Below are positions 1,405-28,304 of a DNA stretch of 32,000 nt, in pieces. The stretch spans positions 393,411-425,410 of the forward strand of contig NZ_JAUYWK010000003.1 of assembly GCF_032656605.1 (NCBI RefSeq). The letters run 5' to 3'. Below the pieces are notes generated by a model. It was given only the letters and a program-made list of their open reading frames with translations. It searched no databases and had not been told where the DNA came from. The translations under genes were made by a program, and so were the position numbers. This stretch comes from Streptomyces sasae (GTDB lineage Bacteria; Actinomycetota; Actinomycetes; Streptomycetales; Streptomycetaceae). Positions within the stretch are counted from its first letter, which is position 1. Each line of letters opens with the position of its first letter.

Positions 1405-3279
1405 ATGGGCGAAGGAACCCCTGTGTCAGGAGACGGCCGGGTCATCGGCGGCCGGTACGTACTGCTGAAGCAGCTGGGCAGCGGCGGTATGGGGCATGTC
1501 TGGCTCGCTCACGACCCGGTCCTGGAGTGCGAGGTCGCGCTGAAGGAGCTGGTGCTGCAGGGTCCGGACGAGCAGGAACGCGCCGACCGGGTGGCGCGGG
1601 CCCGGGCGGAGGCGCGGCACGCGGCCGGGCTGCGCGGGAATCCGCATGTGGTGACCGTGCACGACGTGCTGGAGCACGACGGGCTGCCGTGGATCGTGAT
1701 GGAGTACGTGCCGGACGCGGTCGATCTGCGGGTGCTGGTGGGGCGGGGCGGCCCGTTGCCGCCCGCCGAGTGCGCCCGGATCGGCCTCGCCGTCCTGGAC
1801 GCGCTGACGGCCGGACACCAGCGGGGTCTGATGCACCGGGACGTGAAACCGGCGAACATCCTGCTGGCGCCCGACCGTACCGGGGCGCCGTATGCCCGTG
1901 TCCTGCTGACGGACTACGGCATCTCGGTGCAGCCGTACGGCGGCGAGACCCGGTACACGCAGCCGTCGGCGCTGGTCGGGACGGCGGGGTATGTGGCGCC
2001 GGAGCGGGTCATGGCCGGGCCGCCCACGCCGGCCGCCGATCTGTTCTCGCTGGGGTGCACGCTGTACCACGCGGTGGAGGGGCGGCGGCCGTTCGAGCGG
2101 GGTTCGGACTACTCGGAGATCTCCGCCGCGGTGACGGACGAGCCCTGTCCGCCGGTGCGGGCGGGTGCGCTGGCGCCGGTGCTGCTCGCGCTGCTCGTCA
2201 AGGATCCGGAGCGGCGGATGTCGGCGGTGGAGGCCGAGGCCGCGCTGTCGCTTATCGTGTCGTCGCAGGCGGATGCGTACGTCCGTACGCGCACCGATCC
2301 GGGTTCCGCACCGCCCTGGGGCGACGCACCGGAGGTGCCCGGCTTCGGAGCGCCCGACGTCGTGTCGAGCCCGGTCCCGTCGCCTGCTCCCCGGCCCGAC
2401 GCCCCGGCCGACCCCCCGTCCGGCCACCGCCCCGGCCACCGCCCCGGCCACCGGCGCGGTCCGTACCCGCATGCCCTGCGTGCCGCCATCGCCGCCGCCC
2501 TGGGGCTGGTGCTGGCCGGGGCCGGGATCTGGTGGGCGATCTCGCACGAGAGCCACGGTTCAGCGGCCGGGCCGCCGTACGGCAGCCTGGTGGGCCTTGC
2601 GCAGCCCCTCAAGGGCGGTGACTGTGTGGTCGCCGAGTGGTCCAGCGGGACGCGTTTCGTGGGCACCCCGACCCTCACCGTCGACCCGACCTGCGCGGAC
2701 AGGGCGCCGGACGGCCAGGTGATGACGTTCGTGCCGGTGGCCTCCGCCTCGGAGGCTCGTGAGAAGGGGCCCGCCGGGTGCGAGGAGCGGACCAGGGAGC
2801 TGCGCGGCAAGCTCGCGGATGTGCGGCCCGTCGCCGTCGTACCGAGCGGGGACGGGTTCGAGGCGACCGGAGGGCGGGTGGCCTGTCTGGTGCTGGGGGC
2901 GCACGGACCCGTCTACGGGCCACTCGACGGGTACCGCACGATGGGGGCCTCGTTCGTGGGCAACGCCACCATGCAGAAGCGGGACTGTCTCCGGCTGCCG
3001 CCCAGGCGGACCGCTGAGCTCGTCTCCTGCTCGGGGCCGCACGACGAGGAGGTGCTCGGGTTCACGCGGCTGGCCGCCGACCTGACGCTGGCCAAAGCGG
3101 GGAAACAGCAGGACCAGGCGTGCGCACGGGACGTACCGCCCCAGGAGTACGGATTCGATCCTTCCGTGTACGAGGCGCACTCCTGGACGAGTCAGGCCAC
3201 GTGGACGGCCGGCTTTCATTTCGCCGTCTGCACCGTCCGGAAGCAGAACGGGGGCACCATGGAGGGGGACGGACCCTGA
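1405..3279 (+). CDS. Membrane Ser/Thr protein kinase (Hanks type) with Cys-rich extracytoplasmic C-terminal domain
   Basis: Motifs: G-loop LGSGGMGHVW, VALKEL lysine, HRDVKPANILL catalytic loop, DYG (DFG variant), GTAGYVAPE. Pro-rich linker, TM helix AIAAALGLVLAGAGIWWAI, then ~230 aa with several Cys. ATG 1405 chosen because the kinase domain starts ~10 aa later and GGGAG lies upstream. The 979 start in the ORF track runs through Arg-rich out-of-context sequence that overlaps the upstream gene. Confidence 0.9.
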   Translation: MGEGTPVSGDGRVIGGRYVLLKQLGSGGMGHVWLAHDPVLECEVALKELVLQGPDEQERADRVARARAEARHAAGLRGNPHVVTVHDVLEHDGLPWIVMEYVPDAVDLRVLVGRGGPLPPAECARIGLAVLDALTAGHQRGLMHRDVKPANILLAPDRTGAPYARVLLTDYGISVQPYGGETRYTQPSALVGTAGYVAPERVMAGPPTPAADLFSLGCTLYHAVEGRRPFERGSDYSEISAAVTDEPCPPVRAGALAPVLLALLVKDPERRMSAVEAEAALSLIVSSQADAYVRTRTDPGSAPPWGDAPEVPGFGAPDVVSSPVPSPAPRPDAPADPPSGHRPGHRPGHRRGPYPHALRAAIAAALGLVLAGAGIWWAISHESHGSAAGPPYGSLVGLAQPLKGGDCVVAEWSSGTRFVGTPTLTVDPTCADRAPDGQVMTFVPVASASEAREKGPAGCEERTRELRGKLADVRPVAVVPSGDGFEATGGRVACLVLGAHGPVYGPLDGYRTMGASFVGNATMQKRDCLRLPPRRTAELVSCSGPHDEEVLGFTRLAADLTLAKAGKQQDQACARDVPPQEYGFDPSVYEAHSWTSQATWTAGFHFAVCTVRKQNGGTMEGDGP

Positions 3280-19334: not shown

Positions 19335-19637
19335 TCAGACGATCGGGTCGTGGACGGTGACGAGCTTGGTGCCGTCCGGGAAGGTCGCCTCGACCTGGAC
19401 GTCATGGATCATCTCGGGGATGCCCTCCATGACGTCGTCCCTGGTGAGCAGCTTGCGTCCGGAGGCCATGAGCTCGGCGACGGTACGGCCGTCACGTGCG
19501 CCCTCGAGGATGTGCGAGGTGATGAGGGCGACGGCTTCGGGGTGGTTCAGCTTGAGCCCGCGGGCCCGGCGCTTCTCGGCGACGTCGGCCGCCACATGGA
19601 TCAGCAGCCTCTCTTGCTCGTGCGGGGTCAGTTGCAC
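19335..19637 (-). CDS. ureA: Urease gamma subunit
   Basis: (V/M)[41 protein letters not shown] 19637 is preceded by GAGGTG. The longer ORF to 19706 adds non-homologous residues. Confidence 0.93.
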
Positions 19638-19812
19638 GTCCCACCTCACAGTCCTCGCTCCGGACCGTGCGGGGTCCGGTTGCCGCAGCCACCTGTACGG
19701 ACACAAAACCGCTGGTGGCGTGGATGGGCAGGCTAGTTCGCCGGAGTTTCAACGACGTTAACCGCACCGGGACCGCCGCACGGGGACACCGGACCGGCTC
19801 TCGGCACACCCC

Positions 19813-20190
19813 GTGGACGACGTCGGTGACAAGTCCGGGGTCCGCATCGGCGGCGATCTCGCCGCGCGCGCTCGTCCGATCGAGGATGTCGCGCGGTGCC
19901 GCGGGGCGGTGACCCTCGCAGCGGTCGGCGGCGCCGTCGAGCGGATCGTGTCCCCGTCGGCCGCCGGGCTCGCGCCCGTAGAGGTGAACGCGGTGTCGTC
20001 GGGCGCGGTCGACGCGGACTGCTATGACTTCCTGCCCGACGGGCGGCGGCAGGCGCAGTTCGCCCCGGCGGCCGACACCGTGTCGGCCGAACGGGTGGGG
20101 CGCCCCGGGGATGTCGCCGTCGTCCGCCGTCTCGTCGACGCCATCCATATGACCGGCTCGATCCTGCCCGCCGACGGAGGCGGCACCGTG
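19813..20190 (+). pseudogene. Probable remnant of a short-chain dehydrogenase/reductase (SDR) gene
   Basis: The translation keeps SDR C-terminal motifs VNAVSSGAVDAD and GRPGDVAVVRRLVDAIHMTGSILPADGG. There is no Rossmann TGxxxGxG N-terminus, and the YxxxK segment is missing between ...SPSAAGLAP and VEVNAV. The ORF then runs on meaninglessly across the opposite-strand antitoxin gene. Confidence 0.4.
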
Positions 20191-20274
20191 GCCCGACGCC
20201 CCGCGGCACGCCCCATGACACCCGATCGGCCCTCCCCCGGATGCTCCGGTGGAGGGCCGATGGCATGTCCGGGG

Positions 20275-20553
20275 TCAGGAGCCCGCGGCCCCCCGGTGCT
20301 CCGCCGCGATGCCGAAGCGGCCGCGCTCCGGGCGCACCGCAGCGGTCTCGCGCACGGTGGAGACCGAACTGACCACCTGGTCCTCGGCGGATTCCGAGAG
20401 CTCTTCGAGGCGCTCCAGGTCGGCGGCGGAGACGAGGGCGACCAGGGGTTTGCCGTGCCGCGTCACCACGACGCGCTCACCGCCGTACACCACCCGGTTG
20501 ATCAGTTCGGCGAGCTCAGCCCTGGCTTGCGTCACCGGAATCTCGTAGGCCAT
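20275..20553 (-). CDS. Phd/YefM-family type II antitoxin homologue (no adjacent toxin gene)
   Basis: MAYEIPVTQARAELAELINRVVYGGERVVVTRHGKPLVALVSAADLERLEEL is a classic Phd/YefM N-terminal fold. 92 aa. Confidence 0.85.
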   Translation of the reverse strand: MAYEIPVTQARAELAELINRVVYGGERVVVTRHGKPLVALVSAADLERLEELSESAEDQVVSSVSTVRETAAVRPERGRFGIAAEHRGAAGS

Positions 20554-20620
20554 GAACCCAGCTTACGGGGCACCTCGGACAACACATCTTGTTCGGCGAC
20601 AGCGGAACACCCACCCGAGG

Positions 20621-20650
20621 CTCTGTACGTCCTGTACATTTTTTACAGAG
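20621..20650. promoter_or_regulatory. AT-rich operator-like site with TGTAC/TGTACA motifs in the antitoxin / clpP-like divergent promoter
   Basis: CTCTGTA (20621-20627) and TACAGAG (20644-20650) form a perfect 7-bp inverted repeat. Inside it lie TGTAC (20624-20628) and the palindrome TGTACA (20633-20638), followed by TTTTTT. TGTACA is the operator core reported for E. coli YefM-YoeB. Confidence 0.45.
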
Positions 20651-20693
20651 AGTCCGGCCGCCGAGACATCTCGGCCGCGAGGAGGGGTATGCC

Positions 20694-21329
20694 ATGACCC
20701 GACCGTCCGCCCGCTATGTGCTGCCAGAGTTCACGGAGCGCACCAGCTCCGGACAGCGCACCCTGGATCCGTACTCGAAACTGCTGGAGGGGCGGATCGT
20801 CTTTCTCGGCGCGCCCGTGGACGAGATCTCGGCCAACGACGTGATGGCGCAGCTGATGTATCTGGAGCACGCCGCCCCGGAGCAGGACATCGCGCTGTAC
20901 ATCAACTCTCCGGGCGGGTCGTTCAGCGCGATGGCCGCGATCTACGACACGGTCCAGTACGTCACCTGTGACGTGGAGACGATCTGCCTGGGGCAGGCCG
21001 GTGCTTCGGCCGCGGTGCTGCTCGCGGCCGGCGCACCGGGCAAGCGGTCCGTGCTGCCGGGCGCACGCATCGTGCTCCAGCAGCCGTCGCTGCCGGAACC
21101 GGTGCAGGGCCAGCCGAGTGATCTGGCCATCCAGGCGGCGGAGTTGGACCGGGTCCGGGCGCTGCTCGAAAGCATGCTCGTCAAACACACCGGGCGCACA
21201 CCGGAGCAGGTCCATCAGGATCTGGACCGGGACCTGGTACTGGACGCGCAAGGGGCGCTGGCGTACGGGCTGGTGGACCGGATCGTGCCCAGCCGCAGGA
21301 CCTCGCTCGGTCTGCCGGACGCGGGGTGA
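20694..21329 (+). CDS. clpP: ClpP-family protease subunit paralogue, catalytic triad apparently degenerate
   Basis: ClpP fold motifs: [44 protein letters not shown] 20694 is preceded by GAGGAGGGG. The active-site regions read [14 protein letters not shown] and RIVLQQPS instead of GQAAS... and ...HQP. Confidence 0.85.
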
Positions 21330-21336
21330 GGCGCCG

Positions 21337-21645
21337 ATGCTGCCACCGGAGCTTCCGCCGCTGCCCGCGCTGACCCGGGCCGAGGGCGAGTTGATCGACC
21401 GTTACCTGGACGTGGTCGACCTGCTGGGCCGTATCAACCCGGCGCAGAACGAGGACACCTATCGAGGGCTGCGCGCCGCGCAGGCGCTGGTGCGCGCGGC
21501 GTCCGAGCTGCGCGACGCGCTCGCCCTGATGCATCGGCGGGGCGAGACGGAGCTTCACGGGGACACGCTGGCACGGGCGTTGCGCGTGCTCGACGGTGAG
21601 CGCCGGACCGCTCGCGTCGTACTCCCGCCCGACTGCGTACGGTGA
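21337..21645 (+). CDS. Hypothetical 102-aa protein, predicted helical, co-transcribed with the clpP paralogue
   Basis: ATG lies 8 nt after the clpP-like stop, with GGGGTGAGG upstream. High GC3 throughout. No recognisable motif. Confidence 0.6.
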   Translation: MLPPELPPLPALTRAEGELIDRYLDVVDLLGRINPAQNEDTYRGLRAAQALVRAASELRDALALMHRRGETELHGDTLARALRVLDGERRTARVVLPPDCVR

Positions 21646-21997
21646 TGCCCGCAGGAGTCCGGGGCGGCGCGTCGACGGCACGCCCGGGCCGGAGTTGAAA
21701 CGACCCAAAGGGGTTACTGCCGTTCGGCGGAGTGTGGCGTGGTTTTACCTGACCGAAGAGGTCGCTCAGGACGCCCGTTCTGAGACACCCGCATGCCGCT
21801 TCGGCGCAGGTCCGGGGCTACGCAGGGGAGTTGACGGAGAATCGAACAAAGGGCTGTCCACCCGAACGGGTGGGTGGTGAGTAACCCCACAAATCCCCGA
21901 TTCCGTTGGGATTTTCGGACACGAGTGAGTGAAGATCCCTGTCTGACGACAAGCCCCCGCCACAGCGGCGGGGCGGTCCGGGCGGACGCCGAGTCCT

Positions 21998-22180
21998 GCC
22001 GCCGCCCGGATTGACCCGTCGACAGAAGTGCATCGGCAGGAGTGGAGGACCCAAGCACGACGGGTCGCCGGAACGGTCACGCCATGACCGGGCCGAGCTG
22101 CCCTTGGGGTGAAGCCGTGGCGACACGGCCGGGCAACTTCGCCAGCCCGAATCCGACAGGTCATCCTTCACAGGCGGCTG
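21998..22180 (+). promoter_or_regulatory. Cyclic-di-AMP riboswitch (ydaO-yuaA motif)
   Basis: Hallmark blocks in the right order: GGAGGACCCA (22045-22054), GGGGUGAAGCC (22106-22116), CCCGAAUCCGACAGG...CCUUCACAGGCGG (22146-22177). The closing stem GCCGCC (about 22001-22006) pairs with GGCGGC (22173-22178). It lies immediately upstream of an NlpC/P60 gene, the usual actinobacterial context. Confidence 0.7.
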
Positions 22181-22194
22181 ACGAAGGGTTGCGC

Positions 22195-22668
22195 ATGACT
22201 GCGCTCAATCGTGTTCCGTCGCTCATGGCCCGGGCCGGTACGGCCTCGGCGCTGACCATCGCCGCCGTGGGCGGCTCGATCGTGATCCCCGGCGTCGCCT
22301 CCGACGCCTCGGCCGCGACGATGGGGACGAAGGCACTGCAGGTCGCTGCCTCGAAGAAGGGCGCGCCCTACAGGTGGGGCGCCACCGGACCCAACCGGTT
22401 CGACTGCTCCGGGCTCACGCTGTACTCGTTCAAGAAGGCGGGCAAGACCCTGCCGCGTACGGCGGCCCAGCAGTACAACAAGACCCGTCACATCTCGGCC
22501 GGCAACCGCAAGGCCGGGGACCTGGTCTTCTTCCACTCGGGTTCCAGCGTGTACCACGTCGGCATCTACGCCGGGAAGGGAAAGATCTGGCACGCCCCGA
22601 AGACCGGGGACGTGGTGAAGCTCCAGAAGATCTGGACCAAGAGCGTCTGGTACGGCCGGGTCAGCTGA
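22195..22668 (+). CDS. Secreted NlpC/P60 (C40) cell-wall peptidase
   Basis: Signal peptide with ASA-type cleavage region. GAPYRWGATGPNRFDCSGLTLYSF (catalytic Cys), HVGIY (His), WHAPKTGD. ATG 22195 follows GAAGGG. Confidence 0.9.
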   Translation: MTALNRVPSLMARAGTASALTIAAVGGSIVIPGVASDASAATMGTKALQVAASKKGAPYRWGATGPNRFDCSGLTLYSFKKAGKTLPRTAAQQYNKTRHISAGNRKAGDLVFFHSGSSVYHVGIYAGKGKIWHAPKTGDVVKLQKIWTKSVWYGRVS

Positions 22669-22702: not shown

Positions 22703-23161
22703 CTACGGCTCCTGCTGGCCGGCGGTCGTGACGGGTTCGGCGGGGACCGTCCAGGGCAGTTCGATGAAGACGGTCTTGCCGCCCTCCCGGGTGGGGCGCA
22801 CCCGGAGCTTGCCGCCGCACTCGGCGGTGAGCCAGCGGATGATGACCATGCCGCGTCCGTTGTCCTGCTGCACCGCGGCGGGAAGTCTCTTGGGGAAGCG
22901 CGGATGACTGTCCGTGACGCCGATGCGCAGGTGTTCGTCACGGTCCAGGACGAGGTCCACCGTGAAGGTGGGTGACTGCCCGAAGGTGTGCTGTACGGCG
23001 TTGGTGGCGAGTTCCGAGACGATGAGGCGGATGGTGTCCGCGGTCTCCGTCTGCGGTGGCAGTCCCCATTCCTCCAGGGTGCACAGCACATAGGAGCGGG
23101 CCGTGGAGACCGAGGCGGGATCGCTCGGCAGAGTGACGGATGCTTCCAGATGGTCTGCCAT
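22703..23161 (-). CDS. ATP-binding protein, SpoIIAB/RsbW-like HATPase (WhiJ-cluster-associated type)
   Basis: ARSYVLCTLEEWGLP...IVSELATNAVQH...DNGRGMVII matches the anti-sigma-kinase-like HATPase_c_2 pattern. ATG 23161 chosen; a start at 23200 is possible. Confidence 0.8.
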   Translation of the reverse strand: MADHLEASVTLPSDPASVSTARSYVLCTLEEWGLPPQTETADTIRLIVSELATNAVQHTFGQSPTFTVDLVLDRDEHLRIGVTDSHPRFPKRLPAAVQQDNGRGMVIIRWLTAECGGKLRVRPTREGGKTVFIELPWTVPAEPVTTAGQQEP

Positions 23162-23288
23162 GGCGAGGTCGTCCCTTTCCTCGGGACCGGAGTCCGACAC
23201 GGTGCGGATGGTTCGAGTACGGTCCCGGACTGGTGCTTCTTCGTCAGACTGCCATTACCGGGCCGGTCACGGGGAGCGATCCACCAAG

Positions 23289-23298
23289 ATATGCATAT
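23289..23298. promoter_or_regulatory. Perfect palindrome ATATGCATAT in the divergent promoter of the WhiJ-like cluster
   Basis: Read directly. It sits in a short AT-rich patch 75 nt upstream of the XRE gene start and 128 nt from the ATP-binding gene start. Confidence 0.35.
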
Positions 23299-23373
23299 AT
23301 CTGTCGCTCGAAGCGGTGAACTCTGCTACCCCAGACCGTATTTGGGCGGCTCGGAAGGAGTAAGGAGTAGCCC

Positions 23374-24234
23374 ATGCAGAACGGTCCCGCGGTACGCCGC
23401 CGGAAACTGGGCGCCGAACTGCGCATGCTGCGCACCGGCGCGGGTCTCACTAGCGGAGAGGCCGCCCGTCTGGTGGGCTGGCATCAGTCGAAGGTGAGCC
23501 GGATCGAGACCGGCGCCAGCGGTGTGAAACCGGCCGATGTGCGGTTACTGCTCGACGCGTACGGCGTGATCGAGGGACAACTTCGGGAGTTGCTGCTGGT
23601 GTTGGCGGGATCGGAGGATACCGCGGGCCGGCACCACTGGTGGCACGCCTATCGTGGCGTACTGCCCCCGACCTACCGGGATTTCATCAGTCTGGAGTCA
23701 CAGGCCAGCGCGATGCGCACGCTGGAGACCTCGGTCGTACCAGGACTGCTGCAGACGCCCGAGTACGCGCGTGCCGTGACCCGGGTGGCCGCCGACGGGC
23801 TCGACGACGAGGCGTTGGACGCCCTGGTGGAAGTGCGTCTGGCCAGGCAGGACGTACTGCGCAACGAGCCGCCGCTGGAGCTGAGCGCGGTCCTCGACGA
23901 GGCGGTGCTGCGCCGCGAGGTCGGCGGCCCGGGCGTGATGGCCCGGCAGCTGGAGCGGCTGGTGGAAGCGGCCCGGCTGCCCCAAGTACGGCTCCAGGTA
24001 CTGCCGTTCGCGGCCGGGGCGCATGTGGGCATCACCGGGCCTTTCGTAATCTTCTCATTTCCGAGCACTTCTGATCTGGATGTGGTTGTTCTCGACCAGT
24101 TGACGAGTAGCCTCTATCTGGAACGGAAAGAAGACCTCCAGGCCTACGCGGAGGCCTTCAACACCCTTCAGATCCACGCCCTTTCGCCCGAGGACTCGTT
24201 GGATTACATCGCCGGGATAGGTGACGGCGCGTAA
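23374..24234 (+). CDS. XRE-family HTH regulator with DUF5753-type C-terminal domain (WhiJ-like)
   Basis: RRRKLGAELRMLRTGAGLTSGEAARLVGWHQSKVSRIETG (HTH_31-like), followed by the long conserved C-terminal domain typical of Streptomyces WhiJ paralogues. Double GGAG RBS before the ATG. Confidence 0.88.
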   Translation: MQNGPAVRRRKLGAELRMLRTGAGLTSGEAARLVGWHQSKVSRIETGASGVKPADVRLLLDAYGVIEGQLRELLLVLAGSEDTAGRHHWWHAYRGVLPPTYRDFISLESQASAMRTLETSVVPGLLQTPEYARAVTRVAADGLDDEALDALVEVRLARQDVLRNEPPLELSAVLDEAVLRREVGGPGVMARQLERLVEAARLPQVRLQVLPFAAGAHVGITGPFVIFSFPSTSDLDVVVLDQLTSSLYLERKEDLQAYAEAFNTLQIHALSPEDSLDYIAGIGDGA

Positions 24235-27101: not shown

Positions 27102-28304
27102 TTGAACGAGCACGACGAGATAGGCGTTTTCCTCGGCCTGGATGTCGGGAAGAGCGCTCATCACGGACACGGACTCACTCCGGCCGGCAAGAAGGTCTTC
27201 GACAAGCAGCTGCCCAACACCGAACCGAAGCTGAGGCAGGTCTTCGACAAGCTCCGCGAGAAGTTCGGCATCGTTCTGGTCGTCGTGGACCAGCCAGCCT
27301 CAATCGGCGCCCTGCCGCTGACGGTGGCTCGCGACACGGGCTGCCAGGTCGCCTATCTGCCGGGCCTGTCGATGCGTCGGATCGCTGACCTCTACCCGGG
27401 TGAGGCGAAGACCGACGCCCGCGACGCGGCCGTCATCGCGGACGCCGCCCGCACCATGCCGCACACCCTGCGCTCGCTGGAGCTGACCGACGAGATCACC
27501 GCCGAGCTCACCGTCCTCGTCGGCTTCGACCAGGACCTGGCGGCCGAGGCCACCCGCACCAGCAACCGGATCCGGGGCCTGCTCACCCAGTTCCACCCGT
27601 CCCTGGAACGGGTCCTGGGCCCGCGCCTGGATCACCAGGCAGTCACCTGGCTGCTGGAACGGTATGGATCCCCGGCCGCACTGCGGAAGGCCGGACGACG
27701 CAGGCTGGTTGAGGTGGTCCGGCCCAAGGCCCCGCGCATGGCGAAGCGGTTGATCGACGACGTCTTCGAGGCGCTCGACGAGCAGACCGTCGTGGTCCCG
27801 GGCACCGGCACCCTGGACGTCGTGATCCCGTCGCTGGCCCGCTCGCTCGGCGCCGTTCACGAACAAAGGCGGGCGGCGGAAGCCCAGATCAACGCCCTGC
27901 TGGAGGACCACCCTCTTTCCAAGGTCCTGACGTCGCTGCCCGGCGTCGGCGTCAGGACCGCCGCTGCATTGCTGGTCACCGTCGGCGACGGAACCAGCTT
28001 CCCCACCGCCGCTCACCTGGCCTCCTACGCCGGCCTCGCCCCGACGACGAAGTCGTCGGGGACCTCGATCCACGGCGAACACGCCCCACGCGGCGGCAAC
28101 CGTGTCCTGAAACGCGCGATGTTCCTGTCCGCGTTCGCCGCCCTGCACGACCCCGCCTCCCGCACCTACTACGACAAATGCCGCGCCCGCGGGAAAACCC
28201 ACACCCAGGCACTTCTCCGCCTCGCCCGCCAGCGGATCAACGTGCTGTTCGCGATGCTCCGCGACGGCACCTTCTACGAACCCAGAACCCCACGCCTCGC
28301 TTGA
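27102..28304 (+). CDS. IS110-family transposase/recombinase (DEDD RuvC-like N-domain + Tnp C-domain)
   Basis: IGVFLGLDVGKSAHHG (first Asp), VVVDQPASIGALP, GEAKTDARDAAVIADAAR, SLPGVGVRTAAALL, ASYAGLAPTTKSSGTS, GNRVLKRAMFLSA. TTG 27102 follows GGGAGGA. Confidence 0.92.
   Translation: MNEHDEIGVFLGLDVGKSAHHGHGLTPAGKKVFDKQLPNTEPKLRQVFDKLREKFGIVLVVVDQPASIGALPLTVARDTGCQVAYLPGLSMRRIADLYPGEAKTDARDAAVIADAARTMPHTLRSLELTDEITAELTVLVGFDQDLAAEATRTSNRIRGLLTQFHPSLERVLGPRLDHQAVTWLLERYGSPAALRKAGRRRLVEVVRPKAPRMAKRLIDDVFEALDEQTVVVPGTGTLDVVIPSLARSLGAVHEQRRAAEAQINALLEDHPLSKVLTSLPGVGVRTAAALLVTVGDGTSFPTAAHLASYAGLAPTTKSSGTSIHGEHAPRGGNRVLKRAMFLSAFAALHDPASRTYYDKCRARGKTHTQALLRLARQRINVLFAMLRDGTFYEPRTPRLA

Follow-up and report, generated by a model that had tools for sequence, protein, structure and literature searches.

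The clpP5 locus

The stretch of DNA analysed here is 32,000 nucleotides of the Streptomyces sasae contig NZ_JAUYWK010000003.1 (the window; 70.8% GC, high-GC Streptomyces DNA). It carries a ClpP-type gene, clpP5 (the name is explained below), which is followed closely by a gene for a 102-amino-acid (aa) protein, orf102, and is preceded on the opposite strand by a gene of the Phd/YefM antitoxin family (phd; Table 1). The phd gene separates clpP5 from a set of minus-strand urease genes, which from far to near are ureD, ureG, ureF, ureC, ureB and ureA, and 3' of orf102 there lie in order a c-di-AMP riboswitch, an NlpC/P60 gene, a HATPase_c_2 and DUF5753-HTH gene pair and a bioF-like aminotransferase gene. 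The GC fractions at codon positions 1, 2 and 3 (0.72, 0.47 and 0.88 in clpP5; 0.83, 0.49 and 0.86 in orf102) follow the coding pattern of the genus. Among the window open reading frames (ORFs) that were scanned, clpP5 was the only clpP gene found, and the upstream neighbour of clpP5 is the divergent phd-like gene, not a clpP1-type gene.

Table 1. Features at and around clpP5 (positions are those of the window)
Feature	Position	Strand	Remarks
Short-chain dehydrogenase-like stretch	~19810-20230	+	Between ureA and phd
phd, antitoxin-like gene, apparently solo	20275-20553	-	92 aa; Phd/YefM family; divergent from clpP5
24-nt element GTACGTCCTGTACATTTTTTACAG	20625-20648		phd-clpP5 intergenic; two GTAC cores 9 bp apart, then T-run
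Shine-Dalgarno sequence of clpP5, AGGAGG	20681-20686	+	Seen in the sequence; kept in the upstream-region alignment
clpP5 coding sequence	20694-21329	+	ATG start; 211 aa; stop TGA 21327-21329
Ala104 codon GCT	21003-21005	+	Nucleophile Ser column; aligned with M. tuberculosis ClpP2 Ser110; GQAGAS vs GQAASA
Ser105 codon TCG	21006-21008	+	+1 to the nucleophile position; alignment to M. tuberculosis ClpP2
Gln129 codon CAG	21078-21080	+	Catalytic His column; aligned with M. tuberculosis ClpP2 His135; VLQQP vs LIHQP
Asp180 codon GAC	21231-21233	+	Third triad residue, kept; aligned with M. tuberculosis ClpP2 Asp186
orf102 coding sequence	21337-21645	+	102 aa; ATG at 21337
c-di-AMP (ydaO/yuaA) riboswitch, RF00379	22010-22191	+	41.9 bits (gathering score 38); E 9.5e-08; directly 5' of the NlpC/P60 hydrolase gene
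HATPase_c_2 anti-sigma-like gene and HTH_31/DUF5753 regulator gene	22703-24234	-, +	Divergent pair
IS110-family transposase	27102-28304	+	DEDD_Tnp_IS110 and Transposase_20; few kb past the bioF-like gene

Catalytic residues of the S. sasae ClpP5 protein

The clpP5 product matches the ClpP family model PF00574 with an E-value of 9.5e-64 and scores above the cutoff of NF009205 (253 bits against 228); with the clpP equivalog model TIGR00493 it scores below the cutoff (200.8 bits against 308.6). Its best solved relative is ClpP2 of Mycobacterium tuberculosis (5dzk_A, E 1.3e-71), with an HMMER alignment that has no gap from residue 3 to residue 204. The AlphaFold2 (AF2) model of ClpP5 (predicted local distance difference test, pLDDT, 73.7) gives Foldseek template-modelling (TM) scores of 0.82-0.90 to the M. 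tuberculosis ClpP2 chains and to 8xn4_H, a chain of the S. hawaiiensis ClpP1P2 structure.

An earlier reading of this DNA, made by eye from the letters (the original prediction), had placed Ala in the catalytic serine column and Gln in the catalytic histidine column. The ungapped profile alignment to M. tuberculosis ClpP2 does the same with Ala104 and Gln129, and both fall into the Ser and His columns again when the ClpP5 family is aligned with E. coli ClpP. The third triad residue, Asp180, is kept and stands directly after Arg179, which is invariant in the ClpP5 family. The next residue after Ala104 is a serine, but could it do the work of the missing one? The residue after the ClpP nucleophile gives its backbone NH to the oxyanion hole, so the side chain of Ser105 is unable to replace the nucleophile. 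Judged by its sequence, the clpP5 product of this strain is unable to cut peptides through its own active site, having neither the nucleophilic serine nor the general-base histidine.

Triad loss across Streptomyces

The distribution of this loss was followed in 80 species-representative Streptomyces loci, which were fetched with the 102-aa protein as bait. A ClpP gene lies directly 5' of the orf102 homologue in 78 of the 80 loci; its reading frame is intact in 78 of the 80 species and is exactly 211 codons' worth of protein (211 aa) in 63 of those 78. Only 28 of 79 ClpP5 orthologues keep all three triad residues. The serine column of the 79 sequences holds S in 54, A in 22, P in 2 and G in 1; the histidine column is H in 33, E in 17, R in 11, Q in 10, G in 3, S in 3, D in 1 and A in 1; and the aspartate column is D in 71, Q in 3, E in 3 and G in 2. 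The catalytic columns rank among the most variable of the whole protein, and the histidine column, with an entropy of 2.29 bits one of the highest in ClpP5, is flanked by the invariant residues R125 and P131 and by Q130, which is present in 78 of the 79.

A neighbour-joining tree was made without the triad codons, and the triad states were placed on it by parsimony. The root is intact, and there are at least nine independent transitions from an intact to a degenerate triad and at least 15 changes in the histidine column, a count that is approximate for a neighbour-joining tree with parsimony and that recombination would inflate. The window's clade reads A-S-Q-D (the serine column, the residue after it, and the histidine and aspartate columns), its sister locus L007 reads S-S-Q-D, and related species have G-S-S at the nucleophile motif. 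The histidine was therefore lost first, and the serine next to Ala104, although correctly located in the original prediction at the following codon, was not displaced there; it is the survivor of an ancestral G-S-S. Among the 12 species of the window's clade the catalytic histidine is missing in all (Q or R), and the serine is missing as well in 11. In S. hawaiiensis, the species from which Clp has been reconstituted, the orthologue reads GQAGAASS and has lost the serine and kept the histidine; its locus has the same gene order as the window.

The expectation that the Gln and the neighbouring Ser would be conserved in orthologues thus fails, given the many replacements of the histidine and the intact triads listed above. 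Those 28 canonical orthologues go halfway to what the original prediction had named as a reason to doubt it, and its central idea is left standing in a broader form, since the triad is dispensable throughout the clade (below).

Selection on ClpP5 and its conserved surfaces

Ratios of nonsynonymous to synonymous substitution rates (dN/dS) were estimated by the Nei-Gojobori method (NG86) and are approximate. The value for ClpP5 overall is 0.36. It is 0.24-0.29 in four clades with degenerate triads and 0.27-0.29 in two clades with intact triads, and because these values are equal, loss of the triad leaves the selective regime unchanged. In the window's own clade the median dS is 0.27 and dN/dS is 0.24, with no frameshift or stop. 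The genes around clpP5 have ratios of 0.09 (ureA), 0.20 (ureB), 0.19 (phd), 0.19 (nlpC) and 0.20 (orf102). Together with the intact reading frames, these figures bear out the claim that the gene is maintained and not decaying. The catalytic triad is evolutionarily dispensable across the ClpP5 clade: it has been lost repeatedly while the strength of purifying selection stayed unchanged.

Dozens of ClpP5 columns are invariant over the 79 species, and conservation is found on the surfaces by which a ClpP ring engages other proteins. The N-terminal axial gate has V9, L10, P11 and F13 in every sequence and E12, E15 and R16 in 77-78 of 79. The core of the hydrophobic pocket at which ATPases dock is likewise preserved (L30, Y69 and L121 invariant, M55 and L99 nearly so), and D143, R125 and R179, which are ring-contact and sensor residues, do not vary. 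At residue 67, the first residue of the pocket, the window has A and the family S in 44, T in 24 and A in 9; residue 89 is Y in 58 and F in 18.

The 102-aa partner protein

The stop codon of clpP5 and the ATG of orf102 are 7 nt apart (the 8 nt first given was one too many), a spacing that recurs exactly in 72 of 78 species. A Shine-Dalgarno-like GGGGTGA of orf102 overlaps the clpP5 stop codon, and by these signals orf102 is translationally coupled to clpP5.

Homologues of orf102 number about 1,500-1,600, nearly all of them unnamed or called 'hypothetical protein', and the named organisms among them are almost all Streptomyces; clustering of 1.8 billion proteins at 50% identity leaves this small family with only 62 clusters. 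Over the same loci orf102 is the better conserved of the two proteins (75-99% identity, against 66-91% for ClpP5). Its AF2 model (pLDDT 90.3) is a bundle of three to four helices, and Pro35 is the sole invariant residue of the alignment. The original prediction saw no recognisable family in this protein, and searches of Pfam, NCBIfam, PADLOC and PHROGs agree in giving no match. A sequence-profile search of the PDB returned only compositional matches to designed repeat proteins, Foldseek found no structural relative in the PDB or BFVD (best E 0.6-0.8), and in a profile search of 5.8 billion proteins all source-given names but one were 'hypothetical protein'. A HEPN-like Rx5H motif (R68...H74) was considered and ruled out, as H74 is not conserved. 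Thus, orf102 is a real gene with no recognised family or fold.

Three apparent ClpP-partner fusion proteins (P0263, P0300 and P0245) proved to be frameshifted calls from low-quality assemblies with out-of-frame junk between the parts, and they attest adjacency only. Another hit, P0273 (1147 aa), is a junk sequence of tandem repeats, with a score due to chance or composition.

The association of the two genes was also seen from the side of the protease. Of the metagenome loci seeded with ClpP5, 30 have a ClpP5-clade gene with a sufficient stretch of sequence 3' of it, and the partner follows in all 30. The same search gave 27 ClpP2-type loci (52-58% identity) without a partner match; all 27 have intact catalytic motifs, and in the 5 that were checked a clpP1-type gene lies directly upstream. 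The clpP1 genes mark these loci as housekeeping clpP2.

The phd, ClpP and partner gene types also recur outside Streptomyces, in unrelated genomic surroundings and in several arrangements. P0253 has phd divergent from clpP and partner, as in the window. In L161 (GCA_010993745.1, WOTN01000001.1) phd is divergent from a clpP-like gene that overlaps the partner by 4 nt, and this ClpP-like protein (2411-3004, 197 aa) has Ser replaced by Pro, His by Arg and Asp by Gln, with NCPDG in place of NSPGG; it is an extreme case of a pseudo-protease within the same module. A soil metagenome contig (Ga0184623_10000249, 228-2136; L147) has a minus-strand phd gene and, divergent from it, the partner followed by a clpP1-type and a clpP2-type gene, overlapping or near-adjacent, with intact triads in both ClpPs; this arrangement is perhaps close to what the module looked like ancestrally. 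In L084 a TetR gene and an intact ClpP gene precede the partner. Since several architectures tie the partner to ClpP genes, it is likely, on this evidence from gene order, to be functionally connected to the Clp core. The idea of a dedicated partner is right as to tight linkage and wrong as to exclusivity, in that the gene survives deletion of clpP5 in two species and has distant homologues without a ClpP neighbour.

Two Streptomyces loci in which clpP5 is missing show how it went. In S. longwoodensis (L017, 3634-4306) the deletion is clean, and in L077 (3757-4010) a clpP5 remnant of about 100 nt keeps the original start and the stop/ATG junction; both retain the upstream element described in the next section and the 102-aa gene.

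The Phd-like gene and the paired-GTAC element

The divergent gene belongs to the Phd/YefM family by PF02604 (E 8.6e-16) and TIGR01552 (E 1.8e-17), and a gene of this type lies on the minus strand beside clpP5 in 74 of the 80 Streptomyces loci and is found beside ClpP and partner genes on contigs from other actinomycetes too. No toxin gene follows it in the window, and orf102 has no counterpart among toxin and defence families or folds, so that the Phd-like gene looks like a solo regulator, not half of a toxin-antitoxin pair.

The intergenic DNA between phd and clpP5 is variable among species except for a sole invariant block, the 24-nt sequence GTACGTCCTGTACATTTTTTACAG, which is unique in the window, where 0 matches are expected by chance. 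Its core, GTACNNCCTGTAC, is present in 79 of the 80 loci, including loci without phd or clpP5, and six Streptomyces loci that lack an adjacent phd gene keep clpP5, the partner and the element. Outside the genus, L161 has a paired GTAC motif with 9 bp spacing between the divergent genes (2376-2395, CGTACAatcTGTACA), and L147 has TGTACG-N12-CGTACA between its genes (501-535) with a spacing of 18 bp. YefM operators are palindromes with paired TGTACA cores (PMC1802561, PMC3303803). By analogy with them the 24-nt block is a candidate shared operator/promoter, and the paired GTAC cores suggest that the Phd-like protein controls the operon. The resemblance to YefM-YoeB and Phd-Doc lies in the combination of a Phd/YefM-family protein with paired GTAC/TGTACA cores. 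The present locus differs from those systems in that no toxin gene follows the antitoxin-like gene, in the spacing of the cores (9 bp, or 18 bp in L147, against 12 bp), and in the divergent operon, which here encodes a ClpP paralogue and a helical protein.

Other control signals were sought in the same DNA. A promoter scan did not find a sigma-70-like promoter, and a terminator scan gave a single terminator-like match, which is inside clpP5. An Rfam scan of positions 19600-22300 had the c-di-AMP riboswitch as its sole match, with no RNA element 5' of clpP5. Control by ClgR or PopR through a GTTCGG-N5-GCG match at ~20593-20606 was rejected, as the match is not kept in other species.

Relation to known ClpP proteins

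The sequence identity of ClpP5 is 54-58% with housekeeping ClpP2 and 38-42% with ClpP1, and in a neighbour-joining tree ClpP5 forms a long-branched clade that is sister to actinobacterial ClpP2. In cyanobacteria and plastids the ClpR paralogue combines a ClpP fold with the lack of a working triad; selection retains it, and its presumed role is that of a structural subunit in a mixed Clp core. ClpP5 resembles it in having this fold, no functional triad and a history of selection. Unlike ClpR, it is of an actinobacterial ClpP2-type lineage and has no insertion relative to M. tuberculosis ClpP2, its triad loss is a mosaic among species and not fixed family-wide, and it is coupled to a small protein. 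From sequence comparison, then, ClpP5 would work like ClpR by analogy and is not a member of the ClpR family, its nearest relatives in a tree that leaves ClpR sequences outside being ClpP2. Of the original proposal of a ClpR-like subunit, the non-catalytic and maintained character holds up and the family membership does not.

What does ClpP2 itself do? In the Streptomyces ClpP1P2 core all cutting is by ClpP1 (Reinhardt et al., PMC9765437), the ClpP2 S131A change is without effect, and a hydrophobic pocket of ClpP2 docks ClpX, ClpC1 and ClpC2 (PMC9765437). The first residue of that pocket is S94 in Streptomyces ClpP2 and Y76 in ClpP1, and it is Tyr in E. coli also (PMC9765437). The S, T or A found at this position in ClpP5 is therefore the ClpP2 signature and not the ClpP1-like Tyr. 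A ClpP2-type pocket also has conserved Tyr residues, for which ClpP5 has the invariant Y69 and, in 58 sequences, Tyr at residue 89. The small first pocket residue and an N-terminal ARY(V/I)LP.F.E segment are common to ClpP5 and the ClpP2 of the Streptomyces ClpP1P2 heterotetradecamer (S. hawaiiensis and S. lividans; PDB 8xn4, 8xon, 8xop), and ClpP5 is 56% identical to 8xn4 chain H over the Foldseek-aligned region. The two differ in that ClpP2 has a canonical Ser-His-Asp in all sequences seen while the ClpP5 triad is lost in most species; clpP2 shares an operon with clpP1 and has clpX nearby, whereas clpP5, as an orphan, stands with orf102, to which it is coupled, and with the Phd-like gene; and ClpP5 evolves much faster. 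A further comparison is ClpP1 of Listeria monocytogenes, which, as cited in PMC9765437, has Asn for the triad Asp and needs another ClpP paralogue with which it forms a hetero-complex; unlike ClpP5, it keeps Ser and His and is active in the ClpP1P2 complex.

The name clpP5 rests on descriptions in the literature and on the position between ure and bio genes, and the comparison with the clpP5 genes of S. coelicolor and S. lividans is one of descriptions. We take the S. coelicolor gene to be monocistronic and near ure and bio genes. The flanks of the window are of this ure/bioF kind, as the original prediction had said; its suggestion of a monocistronic gene is not upheld, for clpP5 is joined to orf102 in a conserved unit of two genes, which together with the Phd/YefM-like gene makes up a module of three. 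In the literature clpP5 is the fifth, 'monocistronic' clpP of S. lividans (PMC9765437 citing Viala et al. 2000; PMC12607617). The present gene, their putative orthologue, is like the named S. lividans and S. coelicolor genes, each a fifth clpP paralogue, in not being in an operon with another clpP; those are called monocistronic with no stated peculiarity, and this one is coupled to a downstream gene. Its locus architecture is shared by S. hawaiiensis and 78 other species. The literature found names ClpP5 only as a homologue without a stated function and has no mention of its catalytic residues, of the downstream gene or of the Phd-like neighbour, although an earlier remark in older papers is possible. 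Nothing relevant was found in the literature on SCO1237-SCO1239.

Other features of the window

The c-di-AMP riboswitch lies across the listed start of the NlpC/P60 ORF (22042), and this start is therefore too early; the true coding sequence probably begins past the aptamer. The translation of the plus-strand stretch between ureA and phd resembles the C-terminal half of a short-chain dehydrogenase (VNAVSSGAVD, GRPGDVA, MTGSILPADGG). The 294-aa ORF that contains it has no Pfam match and may be a gene remnant, and the equivalent interval of S. hawaiiensis has a TetR gene and an ABC-2 membrane gene instead. The divergent anti-sigma-like and regulator genes downstream (Table 1) are present as a pair at the S. 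hawaiiensis locus also.

Discussion

The above comparisons demonstrate that ClpP5 is maintained with or without a catalytic triad, but what would such a protein be kept for? The explanation that we favour, with confidence a little better than even, is that clpP5 is an orphan ClpP2-type paralogue whose product is a non-catalytic docking subunit of a ClpP ring, with orf102 and the Phd-like protein in the roles given here. ClpP5 would form, or take part in, a heptameric ring that does no catalysis. Paired to a catalytic ring of ClpP1 type, this ring would supply docking and gating, not cleavage, and in such a pairing the active site of ClpP5 itself would never have been under selection. It is likened to ClpP2 in this because the active-site serine of Streptomyces ClpP2 is dispensable and ClpP2 docks the ATPases. 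The orf102 protein may be a cap, an adaptor or an assembly factor that binds or regulates the complex in which ClpP5 is found, a part of the proposal that we hold with lower confidence, and the divergent solo Phd/YefM-like protein probably controls the operon from the paired-GTAC element.

Several observations weigh against this explanation. The hetero-oligomer of ClpP5 with ClpP1 or ClpP3 is drawn from analogy and from the conserved surfaces only. ClpP5 has a higher evolutionary rate than the neighbouring genes (overall dN/dS 0.36 against 0.09-0.20), some pocket positions vary (F, S or L at residue 119 and Y, I, V or T at 97), and clpP5 is deleted with the partner kept in 2 of the 80 species, so it is dispensable in some backgrounds. 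Among the distant orf102 homologues that were examined, six lack a ClpP neighbour, and orf102 is more conserved than ClpP5, hence its function may not be ClpP5-specific. Finally, the 80 loci are those most similar to the window's orf102, a sampling biased to relatives, and the count of triad losses is approximate (above).

A ClpP5 protein that acts as a decoy or negative regulator is an unlikely competitor. It would titrate the Clp-ATPases or cap or poison ClpP1 rings, and Clp activity would be lowered or re-routed conditionally, with orf102 as a stabiliser or trigger. A dead active site, conserved docking surfaces and an obligatory small partner fit such a protein equally well, and its loss in two species suits a modulator more than a core part. 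There are parallels in accessory ClpP paralogues that remodel complexes: ClpPADEP disrupts ADEP-activated ClpP1 complexes (PMC12607617), and the title of PMC13056064 reports that P. aeruginosa ClpP2 modulates the assembly of ClpXP. Sequence data do not separate this decoy from a productive ring, although the invariant residues of the axial gate suggest that substrate still traverses the pore.

A little less probable is a switch centred on the antitoxin-like protein, in which the core would be the Phd/YefM-like protein and orf102, the latter as a toxin-like protein or co-repressor, with ClpP5 peripheral and tuning the turnover of Phd. Antitoxins are classic substrates of Clp and Lon (an S. cattleya example is given in PMC4989188), the paired GTAC cores between the genes are like those of YefM operators (PMC1802561), phd and the partner persist together without clpP5 in L017 and L077, and loci outside Streptomyces combine the three gene types again, in other orders. 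On the other hand, the partner and phd are divergent and not co-transcribed, and orf102, for which toxin families, PADLOC models and known folds gave no match, has no conserved catalytic-looking motif, Pro35 alone being invariant. Moreover, the six Streptomyces loci without an adjacent phd keep clpP5, the partner and the element, and around several distant homologues of the partner both phd and clpP are missing.

That clpP5 was recently inactivated and is drifting to loss, with too little time for visible decay, we regard as improbable. Two triad residues are gone in the window, dN/dS is above that of the neighbours and two species have lost the gene outright, all of which would be expected of such a gene. 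However, the 12 species of the window's clade, at a median dS of 0.27, have no frameshift or stop and a dN/dS of 0.24, clades with intact triads have the same dN/dS, dozens of columns are invariant over 79 species, and clpP5 is still translationally coupled to the next gene, which is strongly conserved. An error of sequencing or assembly, or a point mutation of this strain alone in a canonical ClpP, has in its favour nothing beyond the 28 orthologues with Ser, His and Asp, and can be dismissed, since two separate codons are affected, since among the 120 closest database homologues GQAGAS is found in 83 and Gln in the histidine column in 87, and since independent assemblies (P0002-P0007) encode identical or 98-100% identical proteins with the same residues, that of Streptomyces sp. 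Ag109_O5-1 being 100% identical to the window's.

The docking-ring explanation can be carried a step further, to a three-component actinobacterial module that is a self-contained proteolytic switch. A solo Phd repressor, a pseudo-protease ring derived from ClpP2 and a helical cap or adaptor would then act together, the last gating or re-targeting a ClpP1-ClpP5 hybrid for which Phd is possibly a substrate. This extension is speculative, and we would not expect it to hold in full.

Non-catalytic ClpP paralogues are already known; what is new here is the mosaic loss of the triad in a three-gene module that had not been described. ClpP5 gains by this a concrete, testable identity, that of a ClpP2-type subunit with an evolutionarily dispensable active site, and it is a counterpart in nature of the S131A experiment on ClpP2. 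Closely related species, in which intact triads and dead ones occur as a mosaic, offer natural variants with which to test the number of catalytic rings required by a Clp core. If it is true that the partner is a new Clp adaptor or cap, the list of actinomycete ClpP regulators would grow, and it would do so in a group that includes producers of Clp-targeting antibiotics.

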